64,000 nt of DNA. It comes from a virus. Positions 4,812 through 63,686 of this stretch are shown here, in pieces (the stretch's first letter is position 1; the number at the start of each line of letters is the position of its first letter). Location of the stretch: the IMG/VR virus record IMGVR_UViG_3300043395_003024, positions 32,001 through 96,000 of that record, one strand, 5' to 3'. Both the position numbers and the translations under genes were made by a program. The notes beneath the pieces were generated by a model. The model saw only the letters and a list, made by a program, of their open reading frames with translations, was not told the origin of the DNA and made no database searches.

Positions 4812-4813
4812 CC

Positions 4814-12685: not shown

Positions 12686-12694
12686 GATAGGCCG

Positions 12695-45634: not shown

Positions 45635-48600
45635 ATGCCATCTGAACTGTTCGAATATAAGTCAAGTTCGCTTGGCAACTCCCTCTCATCCAAGGGTGGA
45701 AACATCAACCTGGACGAGGCTCAGGGCATAGTTGAGTGTTTCGTGGCCGGTATTGGGAATAAGGATTCGGTCGGTGACATCGTCGCAAGCGGCGCATTCA
45801 CAAAGAGCCTTCAGCGCCGTAAGCCACGCGTTGTTTGGGGCCACAGCTGGAATGACCCGATTGGCAAAGTTCTAGAGATTTACGAAGTTCCTAACACAGA
45901 CAACCGCCTACCGCTCAAGATGAAGATGGCTGGGATTGGCGGTCTTTTCGCTCGCGTCCAGTTCAACCTGAATTCAGAAAAGGGCCGCGAAGCCTTTGCG
46001 ATGGTTGCCTTCTTCGGCGAGGAACAGGAATGGTCAATTGGCTACAAGACGCTGCGAGCCCAGTTTGACCAGAAGTCTCAAGCAAATGTCATCTACGAAC
46101 TAGAGCTTTATGAGGTTTCGCCAGTTCTCCACGGAGCAAACCAGCTAACCGGAACAATTTCGGTTAAGTCGGACGAGCTCGCAGACAGAATGTCTGCAGT
46201 AATGGAAGATAGCGGAAGTGCTATCGATAAGGCCGAAATTGAGAAGCAATTGGCCGCGATTCTCGGTGAAAAAGTATCACTCATGGACGTAAACGATGAC
46301 GAGGTTACGTTCGCTCGCAGAATGCCCAACGGCGAAGTTGGCCGCTACAAGTGCGGCTTTAGTGGCAGCCGTGGTCGGTATATGTTCGGCGCCCCAGAAC
46401 CGATTGTTGTTATGCCAATGCGTAGGCCAATCGCGCCAGCGGCAAATATGCCGATGGCTGGACCTAGCATGCCTGCCAACGAGCCACAAAGAGTCATCCG
46501 ACCATCGCAGATGCCCTCAATGCCTGTGGCGATAAAGCCAGGCGAGAATGGCAATCGCATGGTTCCGCTCCCGCCAGTGGAGTACGAAGATGGTGGCAAA
46601 GACAGGGAAGAGCCAGAGTTCGACCCCAATAACCTAGACAGGGAAGAGGCCGACCTCAGGGATGCCCTTTTAAAAATTGTGAAGCGTCACGGTCGTTTTA
46701 ATGAGGATTCAACTGGTGTTTACGCGGCATACAGCTCGCCCGAGGAGAACGAAGTTGCCTCAATCGGAGTTAAGTGCGCAAACTGTGTTTTTTACCAAGG
46801 TGGAAATTCCTGCAAGATAATCGCAATGGATGTAGAGCCAGAAGGCAAGTGCAGATTTGCGGTTATCCCGAAGGGTGTCGTTAAGGGAAGCACGGCAGAT
46901 ACCAAGAATTATGAGCTCGATGAGGAGTTCGCGGAAGAGGACTACCTTGCCGAGCTTGAAGTTAAGTACCCAGGGGAACTAGCTGTTGCAGCTGTTCGTG
47001 GAGCAATAGGAAGACGCCGCAAGAAGCGTCGTAAGTTTAAACTTCTTGGCGAGTTTGGTTCAAAACAGGACGATTTTGATTTTGACGACAAGCCATACCT
47101 GTTGCCAGTTGTTCCGCAGTTTGCATTCCAGGTAAAACAGGCGCTTGACCCAATATTTGATTACCACAATGTTGACTCTTTTGTCGATGTAAACGGAATT
47201 GTCATCACATCTGGCGTTAGCTTTGAGTTGATTGAGGCAATTGACACAGCTGTCGAAAATCTAAAAAAAAAATCTCTAACTGAAAACGACATAGAGTGGA
47301 AGGCGGCTAGTTACCGCCTCGGTCGTGCTATCGGAAGTCGCCTAATTGACCGTCCAAACATCGGCGGTGGACGTACGCGTGGAAGATTCTTCACTTCAAT
47401 AGGCGCTGAAGACTTCGACCCATTTACAGCCCGTGATGCGAATCTAAACGGAATCGTTGGTGAAGGTTTGTTCCTTCGTGGTATAGCGCTAGCAACACCG
47501 GACCCCACCCCAGACGGCCCTGGCTCCATAAGGAACCCAAAGCCATCACCACGTCAGCTTTCAAAGCCGGAATCGGAAACAGTAGCCCGTATTGAGAATG
47601 CTGCCGGAAAGCTTTCATCGGGGAAAATAGAGCTAGACCTTCCACGATTTGATGACCCGGATATCGATTCGGCAGAAAAGTTTGGTGCAGCAGAGTCGCG
47701 GCGCGATGAACTTCAGGGCGTACTTGATGGTGCTACCGACCCAGAACAAATAAAGAAGCTAGAAAGAGCAATTTCAGAACTCGACAAGTACATGAACCGC
47801 GTCGAGAAGTTGGCCGAAAGCGAGATGGCTCAGTCTGAGAAGCCAAAGAAGAAGCCTGCAGCTGGAAAGGTAATAAAGGCCGGTCAGAAACTTTCTAGCG
47901 GATATGCAAAATACCTAGATAAGCCGAAATCAAAGCGTTCAATCGATGAGATAAACAAGTTTGATGGCCCGATTAGCGCTGCCTTGTCGTCTGGGAAATT
48001 GCCAGATAAAGCAGAGATTCCAGAAGATTCGCCGATACTGTCGGAAATGTATAAGCGGATGGCTGATGAAATAATCGCTGTTCTACAAGACCTGATTGAT
48101 AACCCCGAAAAGGCAAAACAATGGAAGATGCCGTGGCGAAATCCTGAAATTTTTGCCAGAAACCCAACGCGTAATCGTGTTTACCAGGGCATGAACCAGC
48201 TTGCACTTCTTCTGACTGCACAAAGTCGTGGATATACAACAAATAGATGGGCCGGAAAGACGCAGTGGCAGAAACTTGGTGGAAAACTAAAGCCAGGAGC
48301 TAGCGCACGCGGCGTTTCAATCCTCGTGCCGCGTGAGGGACGAATTCTAATGAACGCAGATGGCCAGCCGGTTGAGACTGGCCGCTACTACGTTGTTCAG
48401 ACTGTTTACAACGTCGATGATGTTGCTGGTCTGCCAAAGAAGTTCTACGAGGTTGAGGATAGCGCCATCAACCAGGAAGAGCGCCTACAGGACTTGGAAA
48501 ACGTAATTCAGGAAATAGGTCCTAAGTTTGTAGAGTCTAAAGGTCAGCAGGCTTTTTATCGCCCCATGACCGACAGCATCCACATGCCGGCGTTTGACCA

Positions 48601-51600
48601 GTTTGAAAATGCACTCGCATTTTATTCAACAGCAATGCACGAGACAATTCACTGGACTTCGCACCCAACGCGACTAAATAGAACTCTTGGCAAAGAGTTT
48701 GGTGATGAACAATATGCTTTCGAGGAGCTTATTGCCGAAATAGGTTCAGCATTTGCTCTTGGCTCAATGGGTCTCGAGCCAACAGTCCGCGAAGACCATC
48801 TTCTGTATCTAAATAGCTGGCTAAAGAAGCTCAAGTCAGACCCACTTGCGATACATAGGGCAATAGTCCAGGCACAGCAAGCAAATGACTATCTTCTTAA
48901 CCGTTCGGCGACAATGCGAAGACTTGCTGGCATACCTGACGATGAGCGTAAGGGCAAGGACGATATATGGTTCGAAGTTCCTATGCTCGCCGGCTATGAG
49001 GATATTGAGCCAATAAAGCCAACAACAACAATAACTGGCCCACTAGAGGACCTGCTTGACTCAGAAGCATGGGATGAATTTGTCCCAGATTCACCAAATC
49101 TGAGTATCGCGGAGCGCGAACTTCGTTCATACGACGTAGCGCCAAATGCGCCGTCAAAGAACAAGGCAGGAGTTGTTATTACTCCGTCCGGAGCGCTTGC
49201 AAGCGGTAAAAAGGCTGGGAAAATCAAGGGTACAAAGCCTGGCGTTCCAGAAATCGACAGAATTGCTGAAGATGTATCGCTAAAGCTTGCATTTGGTCTG
49301 GCTAATGAGCCCACAAATGAGCAGCGCGACATTATGGCTGTTGCTCTATCGCTTATCCACGGCAATAATCCTGCAATTTTAAGTGTTCTTGCTGGTGCTG
49401 GAACTGGAAAAACGACAACGCTTAAAAGCATCGCGTGGGCTCTTCAGAGAGAATTCGACCTATGGCCGGAAGGTGACCCAAGAAGGGCGGAACAGCTTGC
49501 TTACCTATCGGATAGATATGGAATTGATTTCAGCAAGATAAAACCAGAGAAGATTGCTGATGCAGTAACTGAGTTAGCAAAGAATAATAAAACCGGAAAT
49601 CTTTACTATACGGTTTTCAACACAAAAAACCAACTAGAAGCCGAAACAGAATTCCCACGAAATACGGGTATTGCTACTACGGACAAGCTCTGGCAGTGGT
49701 CGCTCCGTCTTGGTCAGGGTGACAAAAAGTATGGACCGGGCATGCGCAGAAAAATGGGCATGCTAAACAAGAGCCGAGAGAGCAAAAAGTCCATGCGTAG
49801 AAATCCGGCATGGAAGAGCGAAGAAGAGACGCCAGGCGTCGAAAAAATGATTGGAAAAAATTTCGTCAGAGAAAAATTTGACGGAACAACCGAAACGTTT
49901 GTTGGTGAGGACCCTGGTTTTGAGGCTCTTGGCTGGACAATGCTTCAAAAAGGTGACGACTTTGCTGAGCATCTTGGCCTAGAGAAATGGCCAGATGTTG
50001 TAAAAAGAAAGAAAATGAAGCCAGACGTGGATGCTTCCGGCAGGCCTATTCGTGATGAAAAAGGAAAAGTAAAGAAGTCAGAAGTAGAAGTAGAGGGTTT
50101 TGAACTTCCAAACGGAACGTTCCTTGAACTTTCCGAAATGGGCGACCTTCTATCTAACGCCCTTAAGCGCTGGGGTCTGTCCAAAGAAGAAAAAGTTACA
50201 GCACAACACTTCATGCCTCCAAAACAGAGACTTGAAGACATGGATACGCCGCGTGGAAAGGACAATCAACCCACAGGCGTTGACAGCATTCTCACCGAAG
50301 AGCAAATTCCTAAAAAATGGATTGAGGCGGTCCAGTCAATCGTGGACGAGATTGCAGATGGCGACTCTAACCTGCTACCAACAATGGAACTTGTGTCTAA
50401 ATTCTGGATGATGACAGACCCTGACCTGAGAACAGACCCAGGTTTAATTACGCACTCTTCAGCTCAAACAAGAGTAAAAGTATCCGTTCCATCATCGCTA
50501 CGCGAAGGCGATACATACGTTTATGACGGCGAAGAGTGGGTTGTTACAGGATTAACCAAAAAGGCTGGGAAAACATCAAGTGCTACCTTACGTAAAAAGA
50601 TGGCATCAAAGGAAAATCCCCTCGGTGCATTCTTGCTAGACGAGGTGCAAGACTCAAACGAGGTTCTCGAAACAGTTCTAGATAGGAATAGGGATAAGCT
50701 CCCTATTATTCTTGTCGGAGACGATAGACAGGCTGTCTATGCATTCCGCGATGCAAAGAATATTCTGGCGTCACTTGATTCAGAGTACTCACAGGACATT
50801 ACAGAGTCGTTTAGATATGGCGAAACTGTAGGTCATGCCGCAAACCTGGTTCTTGGAGCACAAAATGTTCATCTGCGTAGACAGGGTGTTAAGCAACAGC
50901 CGTGGAAGCACGTTAAGGGCCAGGCGCAAACTGTTATCAATAGGCAGTTTGACCCACTATTGCCAGAAAAAGATAGGCTCGGCAATAATCCGGTCGATGA
51001 AATAGATGATGCAACACGCCAGATATTGATAGCCGATATAGAGAAAAAATATTCTACTCCAGAGAAGAAGCTTGACCTGCTGTCACTAGATAGACCAGCA
51101 CAGGACAAGGCCTTAAAGGAGCTTAGGGATACGCTTTATGGACCAAAAGCTGGTCAAATAGTAGATAGATATGCAGAGGCCGATAAGGGCAATCTGCCAA
51201 CGATGATTCTCTGTAGAACAAACGGTGAAATAATCAACGAAGCTCTAAAGTTTATAAATATAGTCATAAATAGTAAGGCTGTTGAGCGTGATGAACGAGG
51301 CATGCCAAAACTACCTGAAGTAATTATTCCAGCTAGCAAGTGGGAGCAGCTTCTTACATTTACTAAGCACCTTGACTTCATAATGCGTTCACCTGCAAAG
51401 CAGCAAGAATACATAGCAAGATTTGGTAAGCCAGAGATGTCATCATGGCTCGGACCGATTTGGACACAGGGCACCTTGCAGAAAGCTCTCAATCAGTCAA
51501 AGTATCAACAGGCGCGCAGCGCATACAAACTGATAATGCAGCCGCCAAAGAGCGACCCAACTGCTCCGCCACTTGGCACTCGCGGCATGCTTGAACTTTT

Positions 51601-54466
51601 GCAGGGAACGATAGTTAGAAGCGTTCATGAAAAGGGCAAAGCTAAAGGCAAAGAAAAAATTGAGATAATCCCAGCTGTTTTGTTACCAGAGCGCAAAACG
51701 ATGGAGCTTGATAACTGGGCGGTTGGCATCGACCAGGTAAGAGAAATAGCCGGTAGGCAAAAGTCAGCATGGAAGTCTTCGCCAACCCAGAGAGAAAAAC
51801 TATTTATTATCCCGAATGTCGATGACACCTACAAGCAGGCTGTATATGCCGCACTTGACATAGAAGGTGGGGACGATAAGAGACCAGGAAAGCCAACTGG
51901 AAGAATAATAATAACTGGAGACGGAGTCGATACAGGTCGCCCAATCGATATGCCAGATGGGTCGCAGAGGCCCAATACTCCGACTGGTGGTCGCGGTTCG
52001 AACAACGGTAGATACCGTAGAGACCTCGAGAAAGCAATAATTAAACTTGGCCTGCAGGACAAAGTAAAGCCAATGGCTGAAGCCGAACGCGGTTTTAGAA
52101 AAGAAGGCGAAGCTCAGCGCAGGCTTTATGACGGTTTCGTCATTGAAGGCGCAACGATAGAGGAAAGCACTGAGATTCTAGGACAATTAGCACAAGCGCT
52201 TCGAGATTCCGCAAAGACCGCAGGTGGAGATGTTGAAATTACAACAATGCAGCTTTCGAAGGGTCGCGAATCTAGATTCGTTGCAGTTGCGGAGGACCTC
52301 AGCGACCCAATTTCAAATATCCCGGAAAAACTGGCGCAGGGTGAAGCTGGCGTCAGCTATATGGAAGAAGGCAACCTAGTTCACGTTGCATTCTCGCGTG
52401 CAAAAGAACAGCTCGACCCGGGCACTGCCGGATTTGTTTACTGGCTACATGACCAGCGCACAAAAGCGGTGCGAGAAGCCATAACGCAGGCTGTAAAAGA
52501 TGGACATATTCCGCCAGAGCTCGATAAGGGCGCATTTAGCGACGATGGCGGCATTGAGTTGCCGGAATGGTACAAAAAGCTCAACTCTATGTCTCTAGAG
52601 GAGCTAAAGGATGGATTCCCGGCTCGTCCAACAGACAAAAAAGAAGACGAAGACATAACTGTCCCATCACCTGTTGATGGTGGAGAACCCGATGATTTTG
52701 AACCAATCGTTACGGAAATTGACGAAGATGATTACGAAATGGGGGATACTGACGTCCCGAGTGACGAAGGTGAAAAACTACCAACATTCGATGATGATGA
52801 AGAAATTATGGACGATGGCGAACTTCCGGAAGTCCCAGGCATGCGCCTATCCAGTGGCGCGACTCCTGGTGCGGATAGGCGCATAGCTCGCAGAAATAGG
52901 CGCATAGCAAAGAGCAATTTGTACTCAAATAGCATGAGTGCACAGCAGCTTGCTGGAATAAGAATTAGCGGCGACCCAAATTCAAGCAAAAATAGACAAG
53001 CATTAGAGTTCGCAATGCAAGCATGGGACGGTGTACGTCGTCGTGGCATAGCTATTGACGTTGACGACGATACGCTTTCGGTAGCAGAGCGTCAGTCTAG
53101 GACGCGCGGTGCCATGCAGAGTGTCGGTGCGGCCATGAGGGGGCGCAAGGATAGGGTCCGCATTGGTAAGGTTAGTGATAATGGAAGAAATGAAAATCCA
53201 TCGGCGGAAACATGGATGCTTTCTGTTGACAAGCTTGCTGACACAATAAGGATTCCAACAGAATTTACGTCAAGAGAAAACTCCGAGGGTGGCTCGACAA
53301 TCCGCTGGACCCAGTCGCGCCCTGCAACGAGGGAAGAAATTGGTAAATTGCTTGGCCTTAGCCCTGCCGACGCAGAAAAGCTAAAGGACCCAGATGCAGG
53401 CATAAACCATGACGCAGTACGTCTTCTCATTGCGGAACTAGGCAAACAGGAAGACCTTCCAGCATGGAGATACTTTGCTCCTGTTAGCGCCGATGAGGCA
53501 AGGCGCATAACCCCTTCACCCGAAGGCGATATTGCGGAAAATATCCCTCAGGTAGATTTGGCTGCAGAAAATGCTGGCCGTGCAAACATGCGAGATAGGT
53601 TTATTATCGAAACCTTCGGCAAAGACGCATATCCGCACTGGTTTGACGTCGAGGAAAACCAGTCGATGACGCCAGATGAGTACGTCCAGCTTGGAGAGAT
53701 AAGTGAAACGTCTAAATTCCGTGCCTCTGGTCGCTTCTACCCAGATAGCGCAATCAAGGGCGACTCGGAAGCAGAAGTTGACCTTTACGGCGAATCACTT
53801 GACGCGCTTGTACCAGCAGAGGGTGCAGTAGATGCAACAGGCGATGTGCTGAGAAACGACAAGACTTCAATAGAAGATTTCGACCTTGACTCTCTGATTG
53901 ATTATCTAGGAATAGACAAAAAAGAGTGGAAGAAGGGCCTGCAGGAAAGACTTTCTGCAGCTTTTGGCACTGATTCGGTCGGAATCAACGATGAATGGAG
54001 AAGAAAAGGCATCCCAACAGCGACGGTTGCCCACATGATTAGAACGGGCGTTCTGCCAGATGCAGGGTCGGTATGGAAAGAGGCAGATGCCGGGCAAAAA
54101 TTCGACGACGAGATGAAGAGGCCAAAGTATGCGGTCTACGAGGCTTTGACTGAATTTATTGACAAGAGCTTCCCTAATTCCAGACTCAATAACAGAGAAA
54201 ACAGAAACAAGATAATTGGCGCCACGGACATGGGGTACACCCTGACCAACGCGGCCAAGAATCGCGGTTCTGTCTGGAGCCCTGGGAAAGGGAACGAGCC
54301 ACGGTTCTCTCGCGGAGAAATGCAATCAATGGTTGACAGGTTCAATGAAATATTTGGAACTAACCACACACTTGATGACATCTTCAGCGACGAGCAACTG
54401 AGAACGGCCAAGGAAAGAGTCGAGTCCGGGAATACCCTTTCGGGCAAGAAAAAGCCAAAGGCTTAA
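45635..54466 (+). CDS. Giant polyvalent head protein: HK97 prohead protease + HiPIP-like Cys domain + ArdC-N + zincin + UvrD-like SF1 helicase + unknown C-terminus
   Basis: Protease: DSVGD..GAF..WGH..PIG..WSIGY..LYEVSPV..GAN. ArdC: WKMPW..YQGMN..VYNVDDV. Zincin: HETIHW..EELIAE. Helicase: AGAGTGKTT, DEVQD, VGDDRQAVYAFR, SFRYG, CRTN, SKGRE, VAFSRAK. Confidence 0.9.
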   Translation: MPSELFEYKSSSLGNSLSSKGGNINLDEAQGIVECFVAGIGNKDSVGDIVASGAFTKSLQRRKPRVVWGHSWNDPIGKVLEIYEVPNTDNRLPLKMKMAGIGGLFARVQFNLNSEKGREAFAMVAFFGEEQEWSIGYKTLRAQFDQKSQANVIYELELYEVSPVLHGANQLTGTISVKSDELADRMSAVMEDSGSAIDKAEIEKQLAAILGEKVSLMDVNDDEVTFARRMPNGEVGRYKCGFSGSRGRYMFGAPEPIVVMPMRRPIAPAANMPMAGPSMPANEPQRVIRPSQMPSMPVAIKPGENGNRMVPLPPVEYEDGGKDREEPEFDPNNLDREEADLRDALLKIVKRHGRFNEDSTGVYAAYSSPEENEVASIGVKCANCVFYQGGNSCKIIAMDVEPEGKCRFAVIPKGVVKGSTADTKNYELDEEFAEEDYLAELEVKYPGELAVAAVRGAIGRRRKKRRKFKLLGEFGSKQDDFDFDDKPYLLPVVPQFAFQVKQALDPIFDYHNVDSFVDVNGIVITSGVSFELIEAIDTAVENLKKKSLTENDIEWKAASYRLGRAIGSRLIDRPNIGGGRTRGRFFTSIGAEDFDPFTARDANLNGIVGEGLFLRGIALATPDPTPDGPGSIRNPKPSPRQLSKPESETVARIENAAGKLSSGKIELDLPRFDDPDIDSAEKFGAAESRRDELQGVLDGATDPEQIKKLERAISELDKYMNRVEKLAESEMAQSEKPKKKPAAGKVIKAGQKLSSGYAKYLDKPKSKRSIDEINKFDGPISAALSSGKLPDKAEIPEDSPILSEMYKRMADEIIAVLQDLIDNPEKAKQWKMPWRNPEIFARNPTRNRVYQGMNQLALLLTAQSRGYTTNRWAGKTQWQKLGGKLKPGASARGVSILVPREGRILMNADGQPVETGRYYVVQTVYNVDDVAGLPKKFYEVEDSAINQEERLQDLENVIQEIGPKFVESKGQQAFYRPMTDSIHMPAFDQFENALAFYSTAMHETIHWTSHPTRLNRTLGKEFGDEQYAFEELIAEIGSAFALGSMGLEPTVREDHLLYLNSWLKKLKSDPLAIHRAIVQAQQANDYLLNRSATMRRLAGIPDDERKGKDDIWFEVPMLAGYEDIEPIKPTTTITGPLEDLLDSEAWDEFVPDSPNLSIAERELRSYDVAPNAPSKNKAGVVITPSGALASGKKAGKIKGTKPGVPEIDRIAEDVSLKLAFGLANEPTNEQRDIMAVALSLIHGNNPAILSVLAGAGTGKTTTLKSIAWALQREFDLWPEGDPRRAEQLAYLSDRYGIDFSKIKPEKIADAVTELAKNNKTGNLYYTVFNTKNQLEAETEFPRNTGIATTDKLWQWSLRLGQGDKKYGPGMRRKMGMLNKSRESKKSMRRNPAWKSEEETPGVEKMIGKNFVREKFDGTTETFVGEDPGFEALGWTMLQKGDDFAEHLGLEKWPDVVKRKKMKPDVDASGRPIRDEKGKVKKSEVEVEGFELPNGTFLELSEMGDLLSNALKRWGLSKEEKVTAQHFMPPKQRLEDMDTPRGKDNQPTGVDSILTEEQIPKKWIEAVQSIVDEIADGDSNLLPTMELVSKFWMMTDPDLRTDPGLITHSSAQTRVKVSVPSSLREGDTYVYDGEEWVVTGLTKKAGKTSSATLRKKMASKENPLGAFLLDEVQDSNEVLETVLDRNRDKLPIILVGDDRQAVYAFRDAKNILASLDSEYSQDITESFRYGETVGHAANLVLGAQNVHLRRQGVKQQPWKHVKGQAQTVINRQFDPLLPEKDRLGNNPVDEIDDATRQILIADIEKKYSTPEKKLDLLSLDRPAQDKALKELRDTLYGPKAGQIVDRYAEADKGNLPTMILCRTNGEIINEALKFINIVINSKAVERDERGMPKLPEVIIPASKWEQLLTFTKHLDFIMRSPAKQQEYIARFGKPEMSSWLGPIWTQGTLQKALNQSKYQQARSAYKLIMQPPKSDPTAPPLGTRGMLELLQGTIVRSVHEKGKAKGKEKIEIIPAVLLPERKTMELDNWAVGIDQVREIAGRQKSAWKSSPTQREKLFIIPNVDDTYKQAVYAALDIEGGDDKRPGKPTGRIIITGDGVDTGRPIDMPDGSQRPNTPTGGRGSNNGRYRRDLEKAIIKLGLQDKVKPMAEAERGFRKEGEAQRRLYDGFVIEGATIEESTEILGQLAQALRDSAKTAGGDVEITTMQLSKGRESRFVAVAEDLSDPISNIPEKLAQGEAGVSYMEEGNLVHVAFSRAKEQLDPGTAGFVYWLHDQRTKAVREAITQAVKDGHIPPELDKGAFSDDGGIELPEWYKKLNSMSLEELKDGFPARPTDKKEDEDITVPSPVDGGEPDDFEPIVTEIDEDDYEMGDTDVPSDEGEKLPTFDDDEEIMDDGELPEVPGMRLSSGATPGADRRIARRNRRIAKSNLYSNSMSAQQLAGIRISGDPNSSKNRQALEFAMQAWDGVRRRGIAIDVDDDTLSVAERQSRTRGAMQSVGAAMRGRKDRVRIGKVSDNGRNENPSAETWMLSVDKLADTIRIPTEFTSRENSEGGSTIRWTQSRPATREEIGKLLGLSPADAEKLKDPDAGINHDAVRLLIAELGKQEDLPAWRYFAPVSADEARRITPSPEGDIAENIPQVDLAAENAGRANMRDRFIIETFGKDAYPHWFDVEENQSMTPDEYVQLGEISETSKFRASGRFYPDSAIKGDSEAEVDLYGESLDALVPAEGAVDATGDVLRNDKTSIEDFDLDSLIDYLGIDKKEWKKGLQERLSAAFGTDSVGINDEWRRKGIPTATVAHMIRTGVLPDAGSVWKEADAGQKFDDEMKRPKYAVYEALTEFIDKSFPNSRLNNRENRNKIIGATDMGYTLTNAAKNRGSVWSPGKGNEPRFSRGEMQSMVDRFNEIFGTNHTLDDIFSDEQLRTAKERVESGNTLSGKKKPKA

Positions 54467-54493
54467 ACTTAATAAAACGGGCAGAAGTAATAG

Positions 54494-54529: not shown

Positions 54530-54594
54530 ATAATTTAAAGACAATTAATGGTTAATGGTCCATCCGGTCATTTCCCTGCACTCACGGGAGTTGT

Positions 54595-56196
54595 ATGAAG
54601 TACGACGAGAAAGCTACTGTAAGCATTGACGGCGACGGCAATGTCTTGAAGTGCGCAAAGGGCGCAGCCGCAGCGGATTGTGGTTTCGTCAAAGGTGCAG
54701 AGCTATGCGCTAAGTGCGGTGCAATGCCTGTAGAGATGAAAATGGTTCCAGCGTCTGATGAGCAGGTAGTGGAAGAGGAAGTTGATGCAGAGGATGCGAT
54801 GAATCCAACTGCGGCGACTAAGACAAAGAAGAAAATGGATGGGAAAAAGCCCGGCCACGCAATGCTCGACATGGCGGACGAGGACGAAGAGCCGGAGATG
54901 ACAGAGGAAGAGCTTGCAGCTGTAATGCCGTCAAAGAAGGGCGAAGCCGTCACCATGGGCGAAGACGAAGCCGAAGAGATGATGGATGAAGATGAAATAG
55001 ACGAAGAGGACATCCCGGAAGACGAAGAGGACATGGAGTCCGACGAAGAGAAAATGATGGACTCCAACAGTGGAAATAGCGCTCGCATGCAGCGTATGGG
55101 TCGTCGCAGGAAGGGCGCAATGGCCGCCATGGAGGATGAAGAGGAAACTGAGGACGAAGAGGAAGCCGCTACTGAAGCAGAGATGGGCGGAGTCGAAGAG
55201 GAAGACGAAGAGGAAGAAGACGAGGAGTACGCAGAAATGGGTACAAAGTCTTTTTCACCACAAGACTCCGAATGGGAGCAAATTCGCCGCTCAAGAATCA
55301 AGTCAATGGGTCTCAAAACGTCTGACGTTGGCGCAGCTGGATATGTTTGTGCCATTGAGCGCAAGGCCTACGGCGGTTCTTCGCCTGTTTGCGACGACTG
55401 CCCAGGCGGCTGTGTCGCAGAGAAGGGCATGCCAGGAATTCTTCATGTTGAGGGTCTTGCAGAAAAGATGTTTGATGGCGTTGTTGTAGATTCCGGCTAT
55501 TCATCGGATGCAGACATGTTCGTTGTCGATGTTCAGGTCAAAGACGGCTCAATCAATGAGGTTTTCGTCGATGGCACCTCAGCTGAAATACTTGGATTCC
55601 ATAAGCTAGATTCATCCAGTTTCGAACAAAAATCTGATTTCGGTGATTTCCAGCTAATTGATTTCACGGAGGCTGCTGAAATTGCAGTTAAGTCAATTGA
55701 CGGCACGGTAGTGGCTGTTGAGCCAGATGTCTTCGAGGGATTTGATGCGTATGCCGTAGAAATCGAAGGTTTTGACGGCAAGTCGTACGACGTCTTTGTT
55801 GCACTTGATGGCGAGCTGCTTGGTTACGACAAGTACGAAGCAGATGAGGTTGAGGAAATTGAGGCTGAAGCTGCCGAAATCGCTCTTAAGCGCGCGTTCT
55901 CGCAGGAGCGCAGATTTGACTTAGCCAAGAGCGGCGAGGCAATGCCAGACGGCTCATATCCAATCGTGTCGGAGACCGACCTCCGCAATGCCATTCAGGC
56001 TTATGGTCGTGCCAAGGATAAAGAAGCCACAAAGAAGCACATCATGAAGCGTGCTCGGGCGTTGAAGCTGGAGAGCCTGATTCCTGGGAACTGGATTGCT
56101 GGTGGAGAAGAGAAGGCCGGCGACGTTAGCGATGCCGAATTCATGGCCTCACTTGTCGAGTTCCAGCTTCTCGAAGACACACTAGACGACAACTGA
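54595..56196 (+). CDS. Acidic head-associated (scaffold-like) protein with Cys clusters and PepSY-like repeats
   Basis: Two Cys4 clusters, a long Glu/Asp tract, EAAEIAVKSIDG..YAVEI (PepSY-like) and a C-terminal AMPDGSYPI..NAIQAYGRA..HIMKRARAL domain typical of phage head proteins. Confidence 0.7.
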   Translation: MKYDEKATVSIDGDGNVLKCAKGAAAADCGFVKGAELCAKCGAMPVEMKMVPASDEQVVEEEVDAEDAMNPTAATKTKKKMDGKKPGHAMLDMADEDEEPEMTEEELAAVMPSKKGEAVTMGEDEAEEMMDEDEIDEEDIPEDEEDMESDEEKMMDSNSGNSARMQRMGRRRKGAMAAMEDEEETEDEEEAATEAEMGGVEEEDEEEEDEEYAEMGTKSFSPQDSEWEQIRRSRIKSMGLKTSDVGAAGYVCAIERKAYGGSSPVCDDCPGGCVAEKGMPGILHVEGLAEKMFDGVVVDSGYSSDADMFVVDVQVKDGSINEVFVDGTSAEILGFHKLDSSSFEQKSDFGDFQLIDFTEAAEIAVKSIDGTVVAVEPDVFEGFDAYAVEIEGFDGKSYDVFVALDGELLGYDKYEADEVEEIEAEAAEIALKRAFSQERRFDLAKSGEAMPDGSYPIVSETDLRNAIQAYGRAKDKEATKKHIMKRARALKLESLIPGNWIAGGEEKAGDVSDAEFMASLVEFQLLEDTLDDN

Positions 56197-56210
56197 GAAG
56201 GGGACGCCAA

Positions 56211-59200
56211 ATGGCGAAGACCCCACAAACGCGGGAAAGAGTAATAGTTTCGGCACGACTAATTGTGCCAACCTCATGCTGCGGTGGCTTTAATGAAAAG
56301 GCAGTCCGATTCAGGACGTCTATCAATTCTTCGGTTTCTAGCGGTCGGCTACAAGCGGAGATGGCTACAAAAGCGATAACTAGTGGATTTGGAATACGTG
56401 TTAAGGCGTACGTTGACACGGACAATAAGAAACGCGAGTTCACTGGCGATTCTCGTCCGGGTGTTGAATCTAACGAATACGGCTACAGGTGGGAAAAGTC
56501 GGCTACATGGGAACCCGGCTCGAGGCTCGTAATAAGTCCATCATTCAAATCAAGAGAAGGAATGGGCACAGAGCCAAACGTTGGCTGGATTAAGCCAGAC
56601 AAGAATGCTCCGAAGAATTTTGCAGAAACGCTTGAGCGAATCCGCTCAAAGCCGACAATAAAACTGAGCAAGTACAAAGTAAATCCCAAAACCGACGAGG
56701 TAATCCCCGATTCCGAACAGGTAATTGACCCATTTGGCATCACTGCAGGCCTAAGCTACGAAGAAAAACAAAAAGCTATTCAAAAATATAAGGGAAACCT
56801 TATAGAGAAGAAAATGCTTCCTGGTCGCAGTCTTGAATCTCGTGTACCAGGCGGCTCGCTACTGTCGCGTGCCGCTGCGGTATTTGGCATTCTTCGTGAC
56901 GAGAACAACAAGTTCAGGTGCCCGCCGGGAACTCCAGCCGCAAACCAGTTTACGGATGCGACAGGTTCCAACTGTTTTGGTTTCAGCCCATCCAGGTTTG
57001 CTCGTTTTGCGGCAAGACAGGCTGCAAAACTTACAGCAGAAGGCGAATATCAGGGTCTTCGTAATAACGCGAGGTCATTCTTCAACTTCCTGTATAACGA
57101 CCAATACAGCGCAGAAGCGCGTGGCGTAGCAGACCCAGCACTTCTTGGGAGAAGCGTTTACTGGGACTCAATCAGCGGGGACAGATTCAAACCGCCATCA
57201 TGGCGCGAGATTGAAGTGCCAGGAAATCTGCGGATGTTCAAGAATGGTGCTGTTCGCGGGCAGGACGATATTGCGCGACAAAAAGCATCAGTGGCCAGAA
57301 TTGTTGAGTCTCTCGGGATAGACCCAGCAGACCCAGACGCATCACTTAAGGCCGCTCAGGCTTTAAGAAAAATGTGGGAGGACACTGGCGGCGCTGCCGG
57401 ATGGGACCTTGAGATACTTAATGTTTCAGGTGATGGCGCGGCTTTACTTGATGATTTTGAAATAAAACAGTTCATGGAAGCTCGCCTTCAGTCTGTTCCC
57501 GGATGGGGAGCGTTGTCTAAAGAAGAACGGGACAGACTGCTCCTTTCAGATATTGGCAGATACAAAGAAACACAAAAAGCAATGTTCGACACGTTGCTTG
57601 ACCTATTTTCAAAAGACCCAGCTGGCATGCGCAGCATAGGCCGTATCGAATACAACTTTTTTTCAGATGACGAAGCCGGAACATCACTATACAGAGATGC
57701 ACCAAAACTAGTTCAAGCACTGAACCCGGATGGGACCCCACGACTAGACAGAGATGGCAATCCAGTTATGCGTAAAGTGCCTGGGGAAATGCGCACTGCA
57801 ATTCACATCAATATGGCTGAAATTCTTTCCAATCAGGAATCGATGCTCCCAGACATGCGTCCAGACCAGCGCCTGGCAATATCTGCCGTTGGCGCAAGAA
57901 GTGAAGCGGAGGGGCGTCTTGCTGTCGCTGACTTCCTGATTAATGCCGACTATGCATCTAGGGGAATGGCCGGCTTGCTGGATGGCGTCTATTCATTCTC
58001 TAGCCACATCATGCTCCACGAATCAGCACACCATAAACAAGCGCAACTATTTCAAGAGAAAATAATGTCTGAAATAGCAGACAAGGGATTCATTACTGTC
58101 CCCGTCATTAGGGACGGAGTCAAAATAGGCGAACGCAACGTCGATTCAATTTATAAATTGAGCGGAGATGACCTCATGGCAATCATGACGGATACCGCCG
58201 ACTCAATAAATCTTGATTCACTTAATGATGCTATGGAGAGAATCAAGGCAATCGCCCCACTCGCCGGCTCGTATCCACGAGATACATACATAGAGGGTTC
58301 AGAGGTATGGGCGCTTGAGGCCTCAGCCGAGTTATGGGCATTGCGCGAGCGCGGAATCATCTATGGCGAAGATATTGATGCAGCACTTGAGTGGATGGAC
58401 AGCGCAAGCTTTGCAGCCGCAGCCCGCGAAAGAGCCTCTGCCGACGATGATTCAGCAATGGATTCCATGGACGACGTGTTCCGTATCCCTACGCCAACCA
58501 CGGTTCCAGACGATATGCCGGATGATGTCATTGAGGAGACGCTCGCTGATAGAGACGAGAGACTCGCTTCTGAGTTGCGCGAGGAAATAAAGCGATTTAA
58601 GACGGTATTTGGCGAGCTTCCAGAAGAAGAAATGTTCGATGAAGCTGCAATTATTGCTTCACAAAGAGATAATGCAAAACGCAGGCTAGATGCAGTAAGA
58701 GATTTTGAAATCGACCCGACCCTTCCTGACGACGAGAGAATTTCACTTGAATCCATGAAGGCAGAGGCAATAAAAGATTGCCAACGGGCCCTGGATTATC
58801 ACACTAAAAAATACGACGAAGCATCAAAGATATGGAGAAAAAAATATGGCGTAGGTGCCAGCGGAGAAAAGAAGCGTTTCGAAGACAGTGTCCGAGAGGT
58901 TAGGGAGCGAGAGGGTCTTCTAGATGTCGGGGAGATGGAAGAAATAGCAAGACTTGCGGACCTTGACGACCTGCGCGAGAGCGTAAAGGGAATGCCTGAG
59001 AAAAAGGTTATACGGAAGCTCGCCGACGATGAGGTTCGTCTTTCAACGATGGACCCAGCATCTCCAGAGGCAAGAGACCTCGCAGAGCGTATTGACGTCA
59101 TAAAAGACCAACATGCGAAAAATCTAAAAGAGGCTGGCGATACCAGAAGCATCACAGCTGTTAAGAGAGATATCGACAAGAAGGTAAAGGACACAATCAG

Positions 59201-62200
59201 CCCTCCGCCGAAGCCAAGCAAAAAATTTAAGAGTGCAAAAGAAGCATCTGACCATGGCGCGCGCGAGCGCAGACGGGTAAAAGCCACTCCAGAACAGAAA
59301 AAGGCCATGAAAGAGCTAGGCGATGTAGCCGAATCTGACGTTGGCATGCTCCTTGACCCGGCGACACAGACGCGGGCCGGACGCGCAATGAACAAGAGAA
59401 ATGCAAGACTAAAGAGGCTAGGCCTAGAGGTTGACCCAATGTCTTCTGATGAAGCGGACACTGTTCAGCAAGTCGAAAAACTTTTGATACCAACAATGGA
59501 GGCGATTGATGGAACATCTGTTGCCGACCCGTTTGAAATGGAAGCAATTATTGATTTCGAGGCAGGCGTCTTAAAGGGCAAACTAGATGGAAAAGAAGTT
59601 GATGTTGACAAGTTTGTTTCTGGTCGTGTCATAACTAGTAGAACAAAAAAGACAGACATGCCAGAACGCGGCCGGCGAGATGCAAAAACAGGCCGCACTT
59701 CTAGGCGCGTTGTTGTCCAGGTGAGAGAAGGCGACCGTGGATTATTCCCAGCAACAGGCGGAGAGGGCGAACAGAAGTTCGTTGCCCCGCCAGGACGATT
59801 GAGAATTATCGGCAGGGACTCCGACGGTACAATCAGGGCAGAAATTTCTTATCAAAAAGATGCTGTTGAAGTTGTCGATGGCATGGCGGATAGCTTGTCA
59901 AAGAATAAAACTGATGCAATATGGGCTCAGAGCCATGCCAAAAAAATACAGGCAGTTGCAGACAAATATGTTTCAAAGAGACGGGCATCTGGGAAAACGT
60001 TCCCAGGCTCGCGAAGCGACTATGACGACGTAGCTGCAAAATCAACATCTGACGTGCTTGATGACGTCATAGACGCCGGTGGCTCATTTGGAGAAGGCAT
60101 TGATGACCTGCCACCAGATGGGCCGTCAGGACGTTCAGGTTCACTGTCATCTGGCGCCGTAAATGGGAAAAGAAGTGCCCTTGGCGTGCCTGCGACACGA
60201 CAGCAACGGACTCAATCACGCGAATCGAGAATGTCTTCCGTTACGAGAAATATTAAAACCGCACTTGGCGGTGGACGTGGCGACGGCAGTATTTCTCGGG
60301 GAGATATTCACCCAGAAGTTGCTGACCTGATAGCCGGACTCCCCGAAGAGGTTCTCATTTCAAGGGCACAGGCAACCGCATACAGAATGCATGAAGGTTT
60401 TGATAGAAGAGTCAGAGTGCGCGCGACTGACGCTGACATAGAAAGACTTTCATCAGGCCGCGGAATACGCTCTCCGTTCTCGTCCCCATCAGATGAAACT
60501 GCAAGGGCATCGAGAAGGGCTGAACGCCTAGCCGGTATGCCGCCAGAACAGCGTTCTGCAAGACTTTCTTCTGGTAGGACAATTGATTCAAGCGAAAACC
60601 TAGCCGAACGCAGGCGTCAGGAAAAAGACGTTGCCAAACGCGCCCTGTCCGTCTTTGACGACGTTATCAATAGTGGGCAAAACGTAAACGACATGTCTGA
60701 TGACGAGATATCAAAGAGATTTGGTGGGTCGGTTAAGCGGTCTGCAAGAAAGTCAATCAGCGAAAAAGACTCGAACCTTTATGAGGTTGACGATGTTTCT
60801 ACTGCCGTAGCGCTCATGATGCTTGGACACCACGTTGAGGTAAGAGACCAAGATATTCGCCTTACGGAGCAGGCACAAAAAGTCTTTGAAAAAGAGGTTA
60901 AATCAGTAGCTAAAAAGCATATTAAAGAAAACCATCCGCGCTGGAGAGCATTTCAAGAGGAATATGCACTCAAAAACCCAGGACTAGATATCGACAACCC
61001 GGATGTTAGAAAAGCAATGGAAAGCGAGTACGTAGGCAACTATCAGGCTGACCTATGTTCGCTTTATAACCCTGCGAACAACTTAATGTGCTCTGGCCAC
61101 ATAGGTATCGACAGAGAAAAAATGCCACAGACAAATGGTCGCTCATCTGGTCAAAATACAAAGGCAATAATGGCCCTTAAAGCTGGCGTGGCTGCAGGAA
61201 AATGGGAGCCATCAAAGGACGGAATAACGAGAAATAGGGAACTTGAAATTGAGTTTGCCGAAGAGCTAGACGCAAAAATAGCAAAAATCAATAGGAAGAG
61301 GTCACAAGAAATACCACCTAAGGATGCTGTTTCTGATGATGAAATTCCAGGAATTCTTTATGAAATAATTGCAGACAAGCACTCGCTGCGCAATGAGCTA
61401 AGTGGCAAAACGCAGCGCGAACATATGGAAGACTCATTTAGTTTGCTTTCAGATAAAGCAAAGCAGTGGCTATATGAAAATACTGACTGGAACGATACAG
61501 AGGTTAACCTAGAAACGCCATTCATAAATTGGCTCAATGGCGTAATAGATGTTGAGGACCCACAGAATGGTGCGGCAGTTCGATTGAGAAAAGTTGACCC
61601 TAGCGAATATGCACCGTCACAGCAACAACTTGTAGCATCAAAAGTTGACTCAACCGCACAAACAATTCAGGAAACTGCGATAAAAATCGCAGAGCAGATA
61701 AGGGCTGCATCGCCAGGAATATCAGATGAAGAATTTAGAGTAAAGTATTTAGAAGAAATGGGTAAAGAATGGTTCATGCAGCCAATCCTTACAACACGAG
61801 ATAAGTACATCTTAGATGGTCACCATAGGTGGGCAGGGATAGTTGTCGGCAATAGGTCTCTGCCGCCTGAGCTTCAAATACCACTTTCTGCTAATGAGGT
61901 TCAAACAGATATCATCGAGGGACTTACGCTTGGAAAAGTATTCCAGGATGCGTTTGGGATTAAGGAAGCGCGTCTTGGTGCAGAGCTTCGCTGGGATGGA
62001 AAACAAGAAAACATACCTCAGATATCTCCAGATGAATTTGATGCAATATCTACAGACTTAACTGCAAATGCACCAAGGCTAATCGATGAGAAATATAATC
62101 AGGGAGACTATATCCAGCTCGGGTCAGTAGGACTCCGTAATAATCCAGACTATGCACAAGCAGTTGAGTTCAGACAAAGACTTGCACGTACGCGCGGGCA

Positions 62201-63686
62201 AAGCGATATAGCCGCGGCGCGCGAAAGACAACTTGATGAGGCGATAAGAGCGGCAGATATAGAACGTTCCGGCCGCTTATCAAGTGGCAAGAAAGGTTCG
62301 CCTGGTAGACAGAGCGTTGGACGTTTAGCAAAAATGCGCAAATCTAAGGCTGATAAGCGCAAAATTGAGCGCGAGCGTGAGCTACGTAATCTGTATGGCG
62401 AAGATGTTGGAGATATAACACGTTATTTCAGTGGAATGCTGTCTCGCGACGATGCTGACCTAATGATTTACAATGATTTTGTTGAGGGCGGCGAAAAAAT
62501 TGAAAGAGTGGCCCGCAGATATGAGATATCAACTGATGAAGTAAATAGTGCTATCGAGCGATTTAAAAATCTTGATGCAGAAACACAACAGGAACTACGG
62601 GATAGGGCAATAACACGAAATGGCCCATTACCAACAGAAACATCAGGAAGATTATCGTCTGGGAAAACACTCAACAGGTCGTCTGAACAGTATGCACGTG
62701 AATACTATTCTCGAATAGGTCTTCCAGAATCCGTAAGCAACGACTCTCTGCCAGTAAGCGGATATCTAGTTCACAAGTCGCATCTTGATGCCAAGAGACA
62801 GCAAATAATGAATTCAAAGAATGGCAACCTAAGGCCGGATGCTGTTTACGAGATAGGGGACGAAGACGTTGTTGGCGATGGACTGACAGCATTTGGCGAC
62901 ATAGAAATTGTTCTTAGACCATCAGTATCCGAGAGAACTGCTTATGGTCGCGGCAATTCAATATCGTCTGCTCATCGACCTGTCAAGCTAAACTCCCGCA
63001 ACAGAGAAGACGTTGCTGATGCTATATTGAACCCAGACGGCATCAACGGAGATAAGCAGGCGCAGGAAGCGTTCCTGCACATGCTTTCGTCGTCAATAAA
63101 TAACGATTTCTCAAACGTAAACGCGTCAAGAGGCTCGAAAGGAACAATGCCAAGTTCCTTTGACAAGAATCTTCCAGATGGTTCATCAAGAGAGCCGTTT
63201 GAAGCGCAGATACTTGGTGGATTTGACATAAATGAAGTCGAACAAGTCAATATCCCATTCAAGAGGCTTCAGTCTGCTGGCGAAAAAGAAAATATTAGCG
63301 ATGCGGTCAACGAGCGGTCAATAGCAGAGAAACTGAGGTCTGCTGGGTTCTCTCCAGAAGAGATTCAATATTTTTACTCAATCGGCGGTGGCAAAAATAT
63401 CAACACGCAAAGCATGGCAATGCTGCGACAGTACAGAGCATCTCAAAAAATAAAAACAGACATGGCCAGCAAGGGTCTTAATAATGTCAAGTTTGCCCAT
63501 CCAACCGGTTTCAACATAGAAGACCCGCGGTCGCACTCCAAGGCAGCAAGGGGAGGAGAGTCGGTCGAGTCCGTCCTGATTAGGGCTATTGGGGATGAAA
63601 TAGTCGAAGCTGCGAAAGACATGATGAAAGAAATGAAAAACAGCCGTAAGCCGCAAATAACGTCAACTTCTGGTGGAATGCTATGA
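56211..63686 (+). CDS. Giant polyvalent protein: zincin + degenerate ART-like + ParB/Srx + HTH + DUF3626-like domains
   Basis: RCPPGTPAANQF; HESAH..EASAE; DKFVSG..EQKFVAPPG; PSQ..ILDGHHRWA; IERVARRYEIS; PVSGY..FGDIEIVLR..GNS..EAQILGG. Confidence 0.8.
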   Translation: MAKTPQTRERVIVSARLIVPTSCCGGFNEKAVRFRTSINSSVSSGRLQAEMATKAITSGFGIRVKAYVDTDNKKREFTGDSRPGVESNEYGYRWEKSATWEPGSRLVISPSFKSREGMGTEPNVGWIKPDKNAPKNFAETLERIRSKPTIKLSKYKVNPKTDEVIPDSEQVIDPFGITAGLSYEEKQKAIQKYKGNLIEKKMLPGRSLESRVPGGSLLSRAAAVFGILRDENNKFRCPPGTPAANQFTDATGSNCFGFSPSRFARFAARQAAKLTAEGEYQGLRNNARSFFNFLYNDQYSAEARGVADPALLGRSVYWDSISGDRFKPPSWREIEVPGNLRMFKNGAVRGQDDIARQKASVARIVESLGIDPADPDASLKAAQALRKMWEDTGGAAGWDLEILNVSGDGAALLDDFEIKQFMEARLQSVPGWGALSKEERDRLLLSDIGRYKETQKAMFDTLLDLFSKDPAGMRSIGRIEYNFFSDDEAGTSLYRDAPKLVQALNPDGTPRLDRDGNPVMRKVPGEMRTAIHINMAEILSNQESMLPDMRPDQRLAISAVGARSEAEGRLAVADFLINADYASRGMAGLLDGVYSFSSHIMLHESAHHKQAQLFQEKIMSEIADKGFITVPVIRDGVKIGERNVDSIYKLSGDDLMAIMTDTADSINLDSLNDAMERIKAIAPLAGSYPRDTYIEGSEVWALEASAELWALRERGIIYGEDIDAALEWMDSASFAAAARERASADDDSAMDSMDDVFRIPTPTTVPDDMPDDVIEETLADRDERLASELREEIKRFKTVFGELPEEEMFDEAAIIASQRDNAKRRLDAVRDFEIDPTLPDDERISLESMKAEAIKDCQRALDYHTKKYDEASKIWRKKYGVGASGEKKRFEDSVREVREREGLLDVGEMEEIARLADLDDLRESVKGMPEKKVIRKLADDEVRLSTMDPASPEARDLAERIDVIKDQHAKNLKEAGDTRSITAVKRDIDKKVKDTISPPPKPSKKFKSAKEASDHGARERRRVKATPEQKKAMKELGDVAESDVGMLLDPATQTRAGRAMNKRNARLKRLGLEVDPMSSDEADTVQQVEKLLIPTMEAIDGTSVADPFEMEAIIDFEAGVLKGKLDGKEVDVDKFVSGRVITSRTKKTDMPERGRRDAKTGRTSRRVVVQVREGDRGLFPATGGEGEQKFVAPPGRLRIIGRDSDGTIRAEISYQKDAVEVVDGMADSLSKNKTDAIWAQSHAKKIQAVADKYVSKRRASGKTFPGSRSDYDDVAAKSTSDVLDDVIDAGGSFGEGIDDLPPDGPSGRSGSLSSGAVNGKRSALGVPATRQQRTQSRESRMSSVTRNIKTALGGGRGDGSISRGDIHPEVADLIAGLPEEVLISRAQATAYRMHEGFDRRVRVRATDADIERLSSGRGIRSPFSSPSDETARASRRAERLAGMPPEQRSARLSSGRTIDSSENLAERRRQEKDVAKRALSVFDDVINSGQNVNDMSDDEISKRFGGSVKRSARKSISEKDSNLYEVDDVSTAVALMMLGHHVEVRDQDIRLTEQAQKVFEKEVKSVAKKHIKENHPRWRAFQEEYALKNPGLDIDNPDVRKAMESEYVGNYQADLCSLYNPANNLMCSGHIGIDREKMPQTNGRSSGQNTKAIMALKAGVAAGKWEPSKDGITRNRELEIEFAEELDAKIAKINRKRSQEIPPKDAVSDDEIPGILYEIIADKHSLRNELSGKTQREHMEDSFSLLSDKAKQWLYENTDWNDTEVNLETPFINWLNGVIDVEDPQNGAAVRLRKVDPSEYAPSQQQLVASKVDSTAQTIQETAIKIAEQIRAASPGISDEEFRVKYLEEMGKEWFMQPILTTRDKYILDGHHRWAGIVVGNRSLPPELQIPLSANEVQTDIIEGLTLGKVFQDAFGIKEARLGAELRWDGKQENIPQISPDEFDAISTDLTANAPRLIDEKYNQGDYIQLGSVGLRNNPDYAQAVEFRQRLARTRGQSDIAAARERQLDEAIRAADIERSGRLSSGKKGSPGRQSVGRLAKMRKSKADKRKIERERELRNLYGEDVGDITRYFSGMLSRDDADLMIYNDFVEGGEKIERVARRYEISTDEVNSAIERFKNLDAETQQELRDRAITRNGPLPTETSGRLSSGKTLNRSSEQYAREYYSRIGLPESVSNDSLPVSGYLVHKSHLDAKRQQIMNSKNGNLRPDAVYEIGDEDVVGDGLTAFGDIEIVLRPSVSERTAYGRGNSISSAHRPVKLNSRNREDVADAILNPDGINGDKQAQEAFLHMLSSSINNDFSNVNASRGSKGTMPSSFDKNLPDGSSREPFEAQILGGFDINEVEQVNIPFKRLQSAGEKENISDAVNERSIAEKLRSAGFSPEEIQYFYSIGGGKNINTQSMAMLRQYRASQKIKTDMASKGLNNVKFAHPTGFNIEDPRSHSKAARGGESVESVLIRAIGDEIVEAAKDMMKEMKNSRKPQITSTSGGML

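Follow-up and report, generated by a model that had tools for sequence, protein, structure and literature searches.

A lineage-specific LSSG peptide at the module joints of giant phage proteins is a candidate cutting signal

The window analysed here spans 64,000 nucleotides (positions 32001-96000) of one IMG/VR virus record with a length of 145,204 bp (IMGVR_UViG_3300043395_003024; 91% complete according to CheckV). It derives from an uncultured 145-kb myovirus that probably infects Actinobacteria, and it carries two giant genes whose products are termed P0001 and P0002 (Table 1). The tetrapeptide LSSG recurs in both proteins. A preliminary description of this region had proposed that LSSG marks domain boundaries in two giant head polyproteins, which would be loaded into the prohead and cut at LSSG, by the fused HK97 protease or a zincin, into separate anti-defence or takeover effectors. 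Upon re-examination of both open reading frames (ORFs), nine copies of LSSG and one of LASG are located exactly where that description had placed them.

Structurally, P0001 begins with an HK97-type prohead protease domain of the Peptidase_S78 family. This domain scored 50.9 bits in a genome-wide profile search, which revealed no other S78 protease, no ClpP, and no S49 peptidase. Residues H70 and S134, which we take to be the catalytic His and Ser, align with H65 and S114 of HK97 gp4 and are invariant in 25 homologues. The S78 domain is also the best-conserved part of the protein (0.93 versus approximately 0.5), and an AlphaFold model of the N-terminal module that contains it (amino acids (aa) 1-546) is poor, with a mean predicted local distance difference test (pLDDT) score of 52. 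The cargo half includes an ArdC-N domain (PF08401, E 1.3e-16), an MPTase-PolyVal zincin (PF18818, E 2.6e-40), and a UvrD-type helicase module that continues towards the LSSG site at aa 2405 and has fuller Pfam matches in a relative (L075). Pfam therefore confirms all four of the domain labels that had been given to this protein, and it returned nothing usable for the C-terminal segment.

P0002 carries a motif-free N-terminal module (aa 1-1311; window 56211-60143), followed by modules joined by five LSSG sites. Across the six sequences compared, which represent four motif classes, the N-terminal module has an invariant HE..H..Q pattern and downstream E..AEL block, and its HExxH helix reads HESAH, HEFGH, HEVSH, or HETTH depending on the clade. 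No Pfam family matches this module, which on these sequence features may be a new metallopeptidase. The labels proposed earlier for the remainder of P0002 are less secure. The helix-turn-helix (HTH) domain gives only a sub-threshold match to Mor, and the ParB and DUF3626 assignments are language-model leads only, as Pfam searches with cut segments of P0002 gave nothing usable. Between the two giant genes lies the gene for P0003, an acidic protein with Cys clusters and no family match found. A protein of 467-651 aa occupies the same position in all clades examined (e.g. L225-L228).

The motif extends beyond the two giant head proteins in which it was first noticed. A third giant protein of 2948 aa, which is encoded 16 kb past the end of the window (genome 111737-120583), carries nine copies of LSSG, and the tape measure protein, a tail component, carries two. 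Pfam identifies an ADP-ribosyltransferase (ADPrib_exo_Tox, aa 493-739) and an RNase_T exonuclease (aa 784-971) in the third giant. The former lies between the sites at aa 489 and 723 and the latter between those at aa 740 and 1030. When two modules are missing from the third giant of a relative, the motif is still present immediately ahead of the exonuclease. Each giant protein of this phage has an HExxH motif. At its C-terminus (window 24024-24400, minus strand), the tape measure protein resembles a LAS-type zinc peptidase (S-x-H-x-x-G-x-A-x-D ... H-x-H), and Pfam gave no match.

Table 1. Features of the giant-protein locus and of related genes. Coordinates refer to the window unless marked as genome coordinates.
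Feature	Position	Strand	Basis or remark
P0001, 2943 aa: S78 protease module, leader, cargo modules joined by LSSG/LASG	45635..54466	+	ORF, Pfam
Peptidase_S78 (HK97-type prohead protease), aa 32-175	45728..46159	+	Pfam, 45 bits, cut-off 21
A10 homopolymer between protease module (aa 1-546) and cargo half	47263..47272	+	Alignment of loci
31-aa Arg-rich leader, P0001 aa 554-584, directly after A10 run	47294..47386	+	Sequence comparison
LSSG site, P0001 aa 660	47612..47623	+	Conserved in 26/30 homologues; pLDDT below 50
LSSG site, P0001 aa 753	47891..47902	+	Edge of disordered segment in model
LSSG site, P0001 aa 784, 20 aa upstream of ArdC-N	47984..47995	+	SSG invariant; coil in model
ArdC unit: ArdC-N aa 804-895 and MPTase-PolyVal zincin aa 953-1076, HExxH aa 1002	48044..48862	+	Pfam
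LASG site, P0001 aa 1188	49196..49207	+	LSSG in most relatives; pLDDT below 50
SF1 (UvrD-type) helicase module, start, aa 1223-1709	49301..50761	+	Pfam UvrD-helicase and AAA_19
LSSG site, P0001 aa 2405, ahead of 540-aa C-terminal module	52847..52858	+	Alignment of homologues
P0003, 533 aa, very acidic, motif-free, between both giant genes	54595..56196	+	ORF
P0002, 2491 aa: motif-free 1311-aa N-module, then modules joined by five LSSG	56211..63686	+	ORF, alignment
HExxH (HESAH, aa 603-607) of conserved zincin-like P0002 N-module	58017..58031	+	Alignment
LSSG site, P0002 aa 1312	60144..60155	+	Invariant in 10 relatives, flanks gapped
LSSG site, P0002 aa 1413	60447..60458	+	LASG or LSST in relatives; flanks conserved
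LSSG site, P0002 aa 1452	60564..60575	+	Invariant in 10 relatives
LSSG site, P0002 aa 2023, left border of inserted HTH module	62277..62288	+	Alignment of relatives
Mor-like HTH, aa 2079-2127	62445..62591	+	Pfam Mor E 1.4e-3, below cut-off
LSSG site, P0002 aa 2148, right border of HTH insert, before C-terminal module with DUF3626 lead only	62652..62663	+	Alignment of relatives
Tape measure protein, 1604 aa, motif twice	24024..28838	-	After sheath, tube, and chaperone genes
LSSG, tape measure aa 36-39	28722..28733	-	Conserved in relatives; FASG in FSSG clade; GLAS(R) in GFAS clade
LSSG, tape measure aa 580-583, Gly-rich variable stretch	27090..27101	-	LSSG/LASG in relatives; FASG in FSSG clade; GLASG in GFAS clade
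Tail sheath	30181..31635	-	Myovirus tail gene
Large terminase TerL	41747..43084	-	Pfam
Portal protein, motif-free	43404..45503	+	Pfam Phage_portal E 3e-51
Capsid gene, HK97-fold	genome 100343..101701 (L001:5343-6698), 4.7 kb past window		HK97 alignment

LSSG is far more abundant in these proteins than their composition predicts. P0001 carries four copies where 0.072 are expected (Poisson 1e-6) and P0002 carries five where 0.09 are expected (Poisson 5e-8), in agreement with the earlier rough estimate of well below one copy by chance. None of 5000 shuffles of either protein matched the observed count. LSSG occurs 18 times in the three giants taken together; none of the 11 alternative arrangements of its four residues is present more than once. 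The excess is concentrated in the giant proteins: the whole genome encodes 23 copies (1.6 expected), but outside the three giants and the tape measure protein only three copies are present (1.3 expected). Likewise, two complete relatives show this concentration in the homologous giants, with 21 copies (1.95 expected) and 12 copies (1.59 expected). The tail sheath and an 803-aa protein each have one LSSG. Another copy in the primase-helicase was rejected as a true joint site, because it is not conserved and is located within a folded block. Chance copies therefore look different from joint sites.

The serine codons used include both the TCN and AGY types, and all 10 copies in P0001 and P0002 are encoded by different codon strings. 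As had been proposed, selection thus acts on the peptide, and a DNA-level repeat was rejected on the same grounds. The residues adjacent to the motif were initially described as usually R/K-LSSG-K/R, which is roughly right. The context measured over 192 distinct sites is [R>S>K]-LSSG-[K/A/R]. We found no relevant paper linking LSSG with phage.

The sites stand out as conserved islands within linkers that are variable and poor in hydrophobic residues. Across 30 aligned full-length homologues, the motif columns at the five P0001 sites are 0.8-1.0 conserved and their flanks are 0.35-0.46 conserved. All 19 sites of the three giants have flanks that fall below the median in bulky hydrophobic residues (Wilcoxon p 1.3e-4). 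In an AlphaFold model of P0001 aa 640-1250, pLDDT is below 50 in the segments that hold the sites at aa 660 and 1188. The site at aa 753 borders a segment of this kind, and the site at aa 784 lies in coil immediately ahead of ArdC-N. The least linker-like site is that at P0002 aa 1413, whose flanks are conserved. Conservation of the motif extends to the homologues of both proteins, with 30 sequences aligned for P0001 and 10 relatives for P0002.

A single conserved consensus is found at the functional module boundaries, and relatives insert or swap modules at these points. ArdC-N and the MPTase zincin are enclosed by the sites at aa 784 and 1188, and the helicase is enclosed by those at aa 1188 and 2405, an arrangement that is repeated in larger relatives and that corresponds to the bracketing of domains first described. 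Although the sequence within 20 aa of the five P0001 sites makes up just 7% of the protein, it receives 53% of the columns inserted by relatives, a proportion that none of 5000 random site sets matched. The number of sites also rises with protein length (Spearman 0.74). The HTH module of P0002 (window 62289-62651) provides a clear example of such an insertion. This module is unique to the phage examined here, is absent from all nine aligned relatives, and has SGRLSSGK on both sides. Relatives without it retain one or two motifs in the joined linker, and others carry a tandem duplicated ParB-like block. Thus, the motif remains at the joints when the module content changes, a positive outcome for the check that the preliminary description had proposed.

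The strongest new evidence comes from comparisons among clades. A profile search with the N-terminal module yielded 5259 relatives, and the clade peptides were read among the best 150 of these, which include protease-giant fusions of up to 5358 aa. Each clade in this set has its own recurrent peptide, which is LSSG/FSSG, GLAS, GLRS, GMRS, or GFAS (17-21 copies). The core common to these peptides is (G)-Φ-x-S, in which Ser is the residue that is invariant across clades. The LSSG of the present phage, [R/K/S]-L-S-S-G-[K/R/A], is its lineage version of this family-wide joint peptide. Flanking residues also differ by clade: 16 of 20 sites in three proteins of clade G006 read S-LSSG-[A/E/S], as opposed to the R/K-LSSG-K/R form of the window phage.

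Within a genome, the consensus shifts together at all sites, including those in the unlinked tape measure gene. The clade of record G001 has F[S/A]SG at seven sites of two giants and at both tape measure sites, and has no LSSG. A GFAS-type phage has 20 copies of G[F/L]AS in its first giant and two in its second, and its tape measure protein carries EGLASR (aa 48) and GGLASG (aa 630), which are the places homologous to the two tape measure sites encoded in the window. Its capsid and portal proteins lack G-Φ-A-S. Because the codons differ at every copy, these concerted changes are not due to DNA homogenisation. Rather, the co-change pattern points to one lineage-specific reader, which judging from these comparisons is most plausibly a protease.

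Two further sequence features accompany the transition from the protease module to the cargo half of P0001. The A10 run at this point is the longest homopolymer in the genome, and stop codons follow immediately in both shifted frames. An A9-A11 run is retained in 59 of 59 homologous loci, and Lys elsewhere is encoded almost equally by AAA (48%) and AAG (52%). In one lineage, represented by two contigs, the sequence is A_AAA_AAG and the cargo is in the -1 frame, such that fusion needs a -1 shift. Conservation of the run at the nucleotide level together with stops in the shifted frames is characteristic of dnaX-like slippage, which suggests that the A10 run is a candidate programmed slippage site yielding a short and a long product. 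The Arg-rich leader that follows recurs near the N-terminus of the third giant (aa 24-57; L002:1806-1907) with 65% identity. It is conserved in relatives, has the pattern ..LGRxxGSRxIDRPxIGxG.., and may be a common loading signal.

Lineage-private peptides that mark all joints and switch together across unlinked genes are a known signature of protease sites in viral polyproteins, and we therefore read LSSG as a probable cutting signal. We put at roughly 0.6 the probability that one endopeptidase encoded by the phage recognises LSSG and cuts there. The joint peptide recurs along each of three giant multi-enzyme cargo proteins and in the tape measure protein. In this model, the giants would be packaged and injected with the DNA, and the endopeptidase would free modules that include ArdC, helicase, ADP-ribosyltransferase, exonuclease, ParB-like, HTH, and other units. 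We infer the cutting, the enzyme responsible, and the place and time of its action. Much of the preliminary interpretation is upheld by these data, including selection at the level of the peptide, the placement of sites in linkers at boundaries, conservation, the persistence of joints, and behaviour consistent with a single reader. Its restriction to two head proteins is not. The co-variation of the tape measure protein, the absence of the motif from the capsid, and the candidate zincin in P0002 are additions of the present analysis.

Several points weigh against this interpretation. Shared descent confounds the co-variation seen in these related phages, and the whole case for cutting is built from comparative evidence. 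Others concern the two tentative candidates for the reader, namely the fused S78 protease of P0001 and the HExxH module at the N-terminus of P0002, which we rate about equal. Between clades with different peptides, S78 identity is still 74-99%, and only two columns (aa 141 and 154) vary by motif class. The capsid protein has near-matches only (QLSSRE at aa 94-99, which contains QLSS-R; SLTSG at aa 133-137; VYSG at aa 144-147), and these do not follow the clade switches, which weakens the S78 candidate. The tape measure protein is assembled outside the head. The P0002 module, for its part, matches no described family, and its peptidase role is putative.

One version of this interpretation has the giants enter the prohead and be cut inside it by the fused S78 protease, similar to T4 and phiKZ-like phages. 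This is the form in which the idea was first put forward, and we retain it as a candidate, albeit a somewhat unlikely one. The S78 domain is the only recognised head protease in the genome, is fused in cis to the cargo, sits between the portal and capsid genes, and has intact catalytic residues. Its high conservation is as expected of an enzyme locked to many sites, and the column seven residues after the catalytic Ser is R, D, or Q depending on motif class. Furthermore, the conserved A10 run could set the ratio of protease module to fusion protein. Prohead proteases of the T4/phiKZ type belong to the same assemblin-like fold class as S78. Short motifs of the form Φ-x-small or Φ-x-E serve as sites for relatives in this clan (PMC10052503, PMC12991175), and the Φ-x-S core is in line with them.

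However, Φ-S-S-G is absent from the capsid and portal proteins of this phage, and no clade-matched motif is present in the capsids of the FSSG or GFAS clades. The use of one consensus in both the major capsid protein and the internal or ejection proteins, as in phages of the T4 and phiKZ/SPN3US types, is therefore not observed here, which argues against simple prohead cutting by the HK97-type protease. Prohead cutting is also difficult to reconcile with a tail protein that carries the motif and co-varies, and with a protease that barely changes between clades. The apparent targets, as judged from motif content, are the giants and the tape measure protein and not the shell, and these would be the proteins that are expected to leave the virion. 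This distribution fits cutting outside the closed prohead, either in the cytoplasm of the producer cell or after ejection.

Such a distribution would be accommodated if the chains travel uncut and a cargo zinc metallopeptidase, either the HExxH module of P0002 or an MPTase-type domain, cuts them after ejection or in the producer cytoplasm. The processing of polyvalent proteins of that kind has been proposed by Iyer et al. (PMC5512222). In this version, the targets are the proteins expected to be ejected and the shell is spared. The N-terminal module of P0002, with its HExxH and Glu block, occurs in every one of the four motif classes that were compared, has no joint peptide within its 1311 aa, and has an active-site helix that varies by clade. 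Nevertheless, the comparison rests on six sequences, and the module has no family assignment and only putative peptidase activity. The MPTase of the first giant is missing in the GMRS and GLAS clades and was rejected as a universal reader for this reason. We regard cutting by a cargo metallopeptidase as somewhat unlikely.

Alternatively, the peptide might be read but not cut, either as a motif for docking (in packaging or threading, or to a host factor) or as a sequon for serine modification exposed in the linkers. Concerted change by lineage needs only some trans-acting reader, and the residue that is invariant across clades is Ser. Moreover, the R-x-x-S context in this lineage resembles the sites of basophilic kinases. 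However, other clades have lost the R at position -1, and no Hanks-type kinase was found in the genome. A signal that is read without being cut also offers no obvious reason for the presence of one site per boundary or for the flanking of inserts on both sides. We consider this explanation rather improbable, and slightly below the two versions of phage-encoded cutting given above.

Cleavage by a protease of an actinobacterial host, with the clade peptides tracking the hosts, is very improbable. We know of no host enzyme of such specificity, and close relatives mix L and F forms of the motif. The points in its favour are the two WhiB genes of this phage, which indicate actinobacterial hosts, and the host role in T5 tail protein cleavage cited previously (10.1101/2022.09.20.507954). 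Finally, a passive linker or hinge, an effect of chance or composition, or a DNA repeat without a reader would agree with the flexible, low-complexity-like character of the linkers, but this is extremely improbable given that LSSG has 18 copies and each permuted order 0-1, that the motif is strictly conserved within variable flanks, that codons differ per copy, and that clades switch in concert.

If LSSG is indeed the signal of a phage endopeptidase, then the system might follow a strategy similar to that of Gag and Gag-Pol. Slippage at the A10 run would set the amounts of a short protease-scaffold product and a protease-cargo fusion. The three cargo polyproteins and the tape measure protein would be delivered as long threads and cut in the newly infected cell by a co-delivered protease that recognizes the lineage-private code, releasing swappable anti-defence and takeover enzymes. 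This complete scheme is speculative, and we consider it improbable in its entirety. Polyproteins of RNA viruses and retroviruses likewise place many functions in one chain with an embedded protease and a virus-specific junction consensus, and slippage at a run upstream of their enzymatic half could similarly govern how much short and how much long product is made. They differ in that the present chain belongs to a double-stranded DNA phage and is a putative virion cargo rather than a replication polyprotein.

The giants fit the definition of the polyvalent proteins that Iyer, Burroughs, Anand, de Souza, and Aravind described from phages and conjugative elements in 2017 (PMC5512222). These are giant chains that mix ArdC-N, MPTase zincin, helicase, ADP-ribosyltransferase, and ParB-like domains and are encoded beside portal and terminase genes. 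The same hallmarks are found here, namely several unrelated domains in one chain, the presence of both MPTase-PolyVal and ArdC-N, and a gene context of TerL, portal, and capsid. Autoproteolysis and packaging into the head were proposed for polyvalent proteins, but no junction peptide was named (PMC5512222). The present proteins are distinguished by a defined, lineage-specific boundary peptide that is common to several proteins including the tape measure, and by a prohead protease at the N-terminus.

Prohead protease systems also rely on a short consensus by which one protease processes many packaged or ejected proteins. T4 gp21 cleaves after I/LxE, and cytoplasmic proteins can be among its substrates (PMC12991175). 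In SPN3US, AXE precedes the cuts that the prohead protease makes in head and ejection proteins (PMC10052503), AXE being the consensus of SPN3US gp245 and phiKZ gp175. In those systems the consensus is present in the capsid and portal proteins as well, and cleavage mostly removes N-terminal propeptides. In contrast, the peptide described here is located between polyprotein modules and in a tail protein, and the shell lacks it. Cleavage between modules is known for the tape measure proteins of T5 (pb2) and lambda (gpH), although these have no known motif in common with head cargo proteins. In T5, the cut separates a metallopeptidase domain from the remainder of the protein (10.1101/2022.09.20.507954). 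On the basis of these comparisons, the giants would appear to work most like protease-processed viral polyproteins and T4/phiKZ-type cargo processing, except that the capsid does not carry the motif.

In the capsid protein, a long extension at the N-terminus accompanies the HK97 fold. Alignment with HK97 places the equivalent of K103|S104 near aa 153, and the near-motifs listed above surround that region. They are not conserved in the manner of the joint peptide, and the motif was rejected as a capsid maturation site. The delta domain of HK97 gp5 (L206:4028-4500) includes KLASG (aa 63-67), and SLGS opens the mature N-terminus. This likeness to the joint peptide may be a coincidence.

Related contigs in IMG/VR number in the hundreds, and lakes are their main source. 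Two WhiB-family genes (genome 108590-108808 and 16670-16861) suggest an actinobacterial host for this phage, and the GFAS-type relative likewise has WhiB. The window also contains a baseplate J gene. The commonest tetrapeptides in the proteome are GATG and GPTG, which derive from collagen-like repeats in the tail-fibre genes (window ~1-13000). A megablast search of P0001 against cultured phages gave no match, and tblastn against the same phages matched the protease domain only, at 44% identity or less. The nearest cultured relative of the S78 domain is that of Gordonia phage Gray (MK279853.1, L207:11838-36341), with 42% identity. In Gray, the RNA ligase, the VIP2-like ADP-ribosyltransferase, and the 971-aa HTH protein encoded in the interval from portal to protease each have a gene of their own, and this layout is an unfused version of the same arrangement. 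The Gray capsid protein has FSSG close to the place that corresponds to the HK97 cut, approximately 33 aa before a conserved RVRNLFP sequence, a single case that was not used as evidence.

Whether polyvalent phage proteins are processed, and in what way, has been an open question since their description, and a defined junction peptide makes this question directly testable. If the peptide is a cutting signal, it would provide a sequence rule by which giant uncharacterised phage ORFs can be split into functional units, and would aid the listing of injected proteins. The junction code would then constitute a general grammar for predicting injected effectors in uncultured phages, and the clade peptides with their matching proteases could serve as orthogonal pairs of cut site and protease. 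The motif also marks the points at which modules are exchanged between phages, and therefore bears on the evolution of the anti-defence arsenal in abundant freshwater actinophages.

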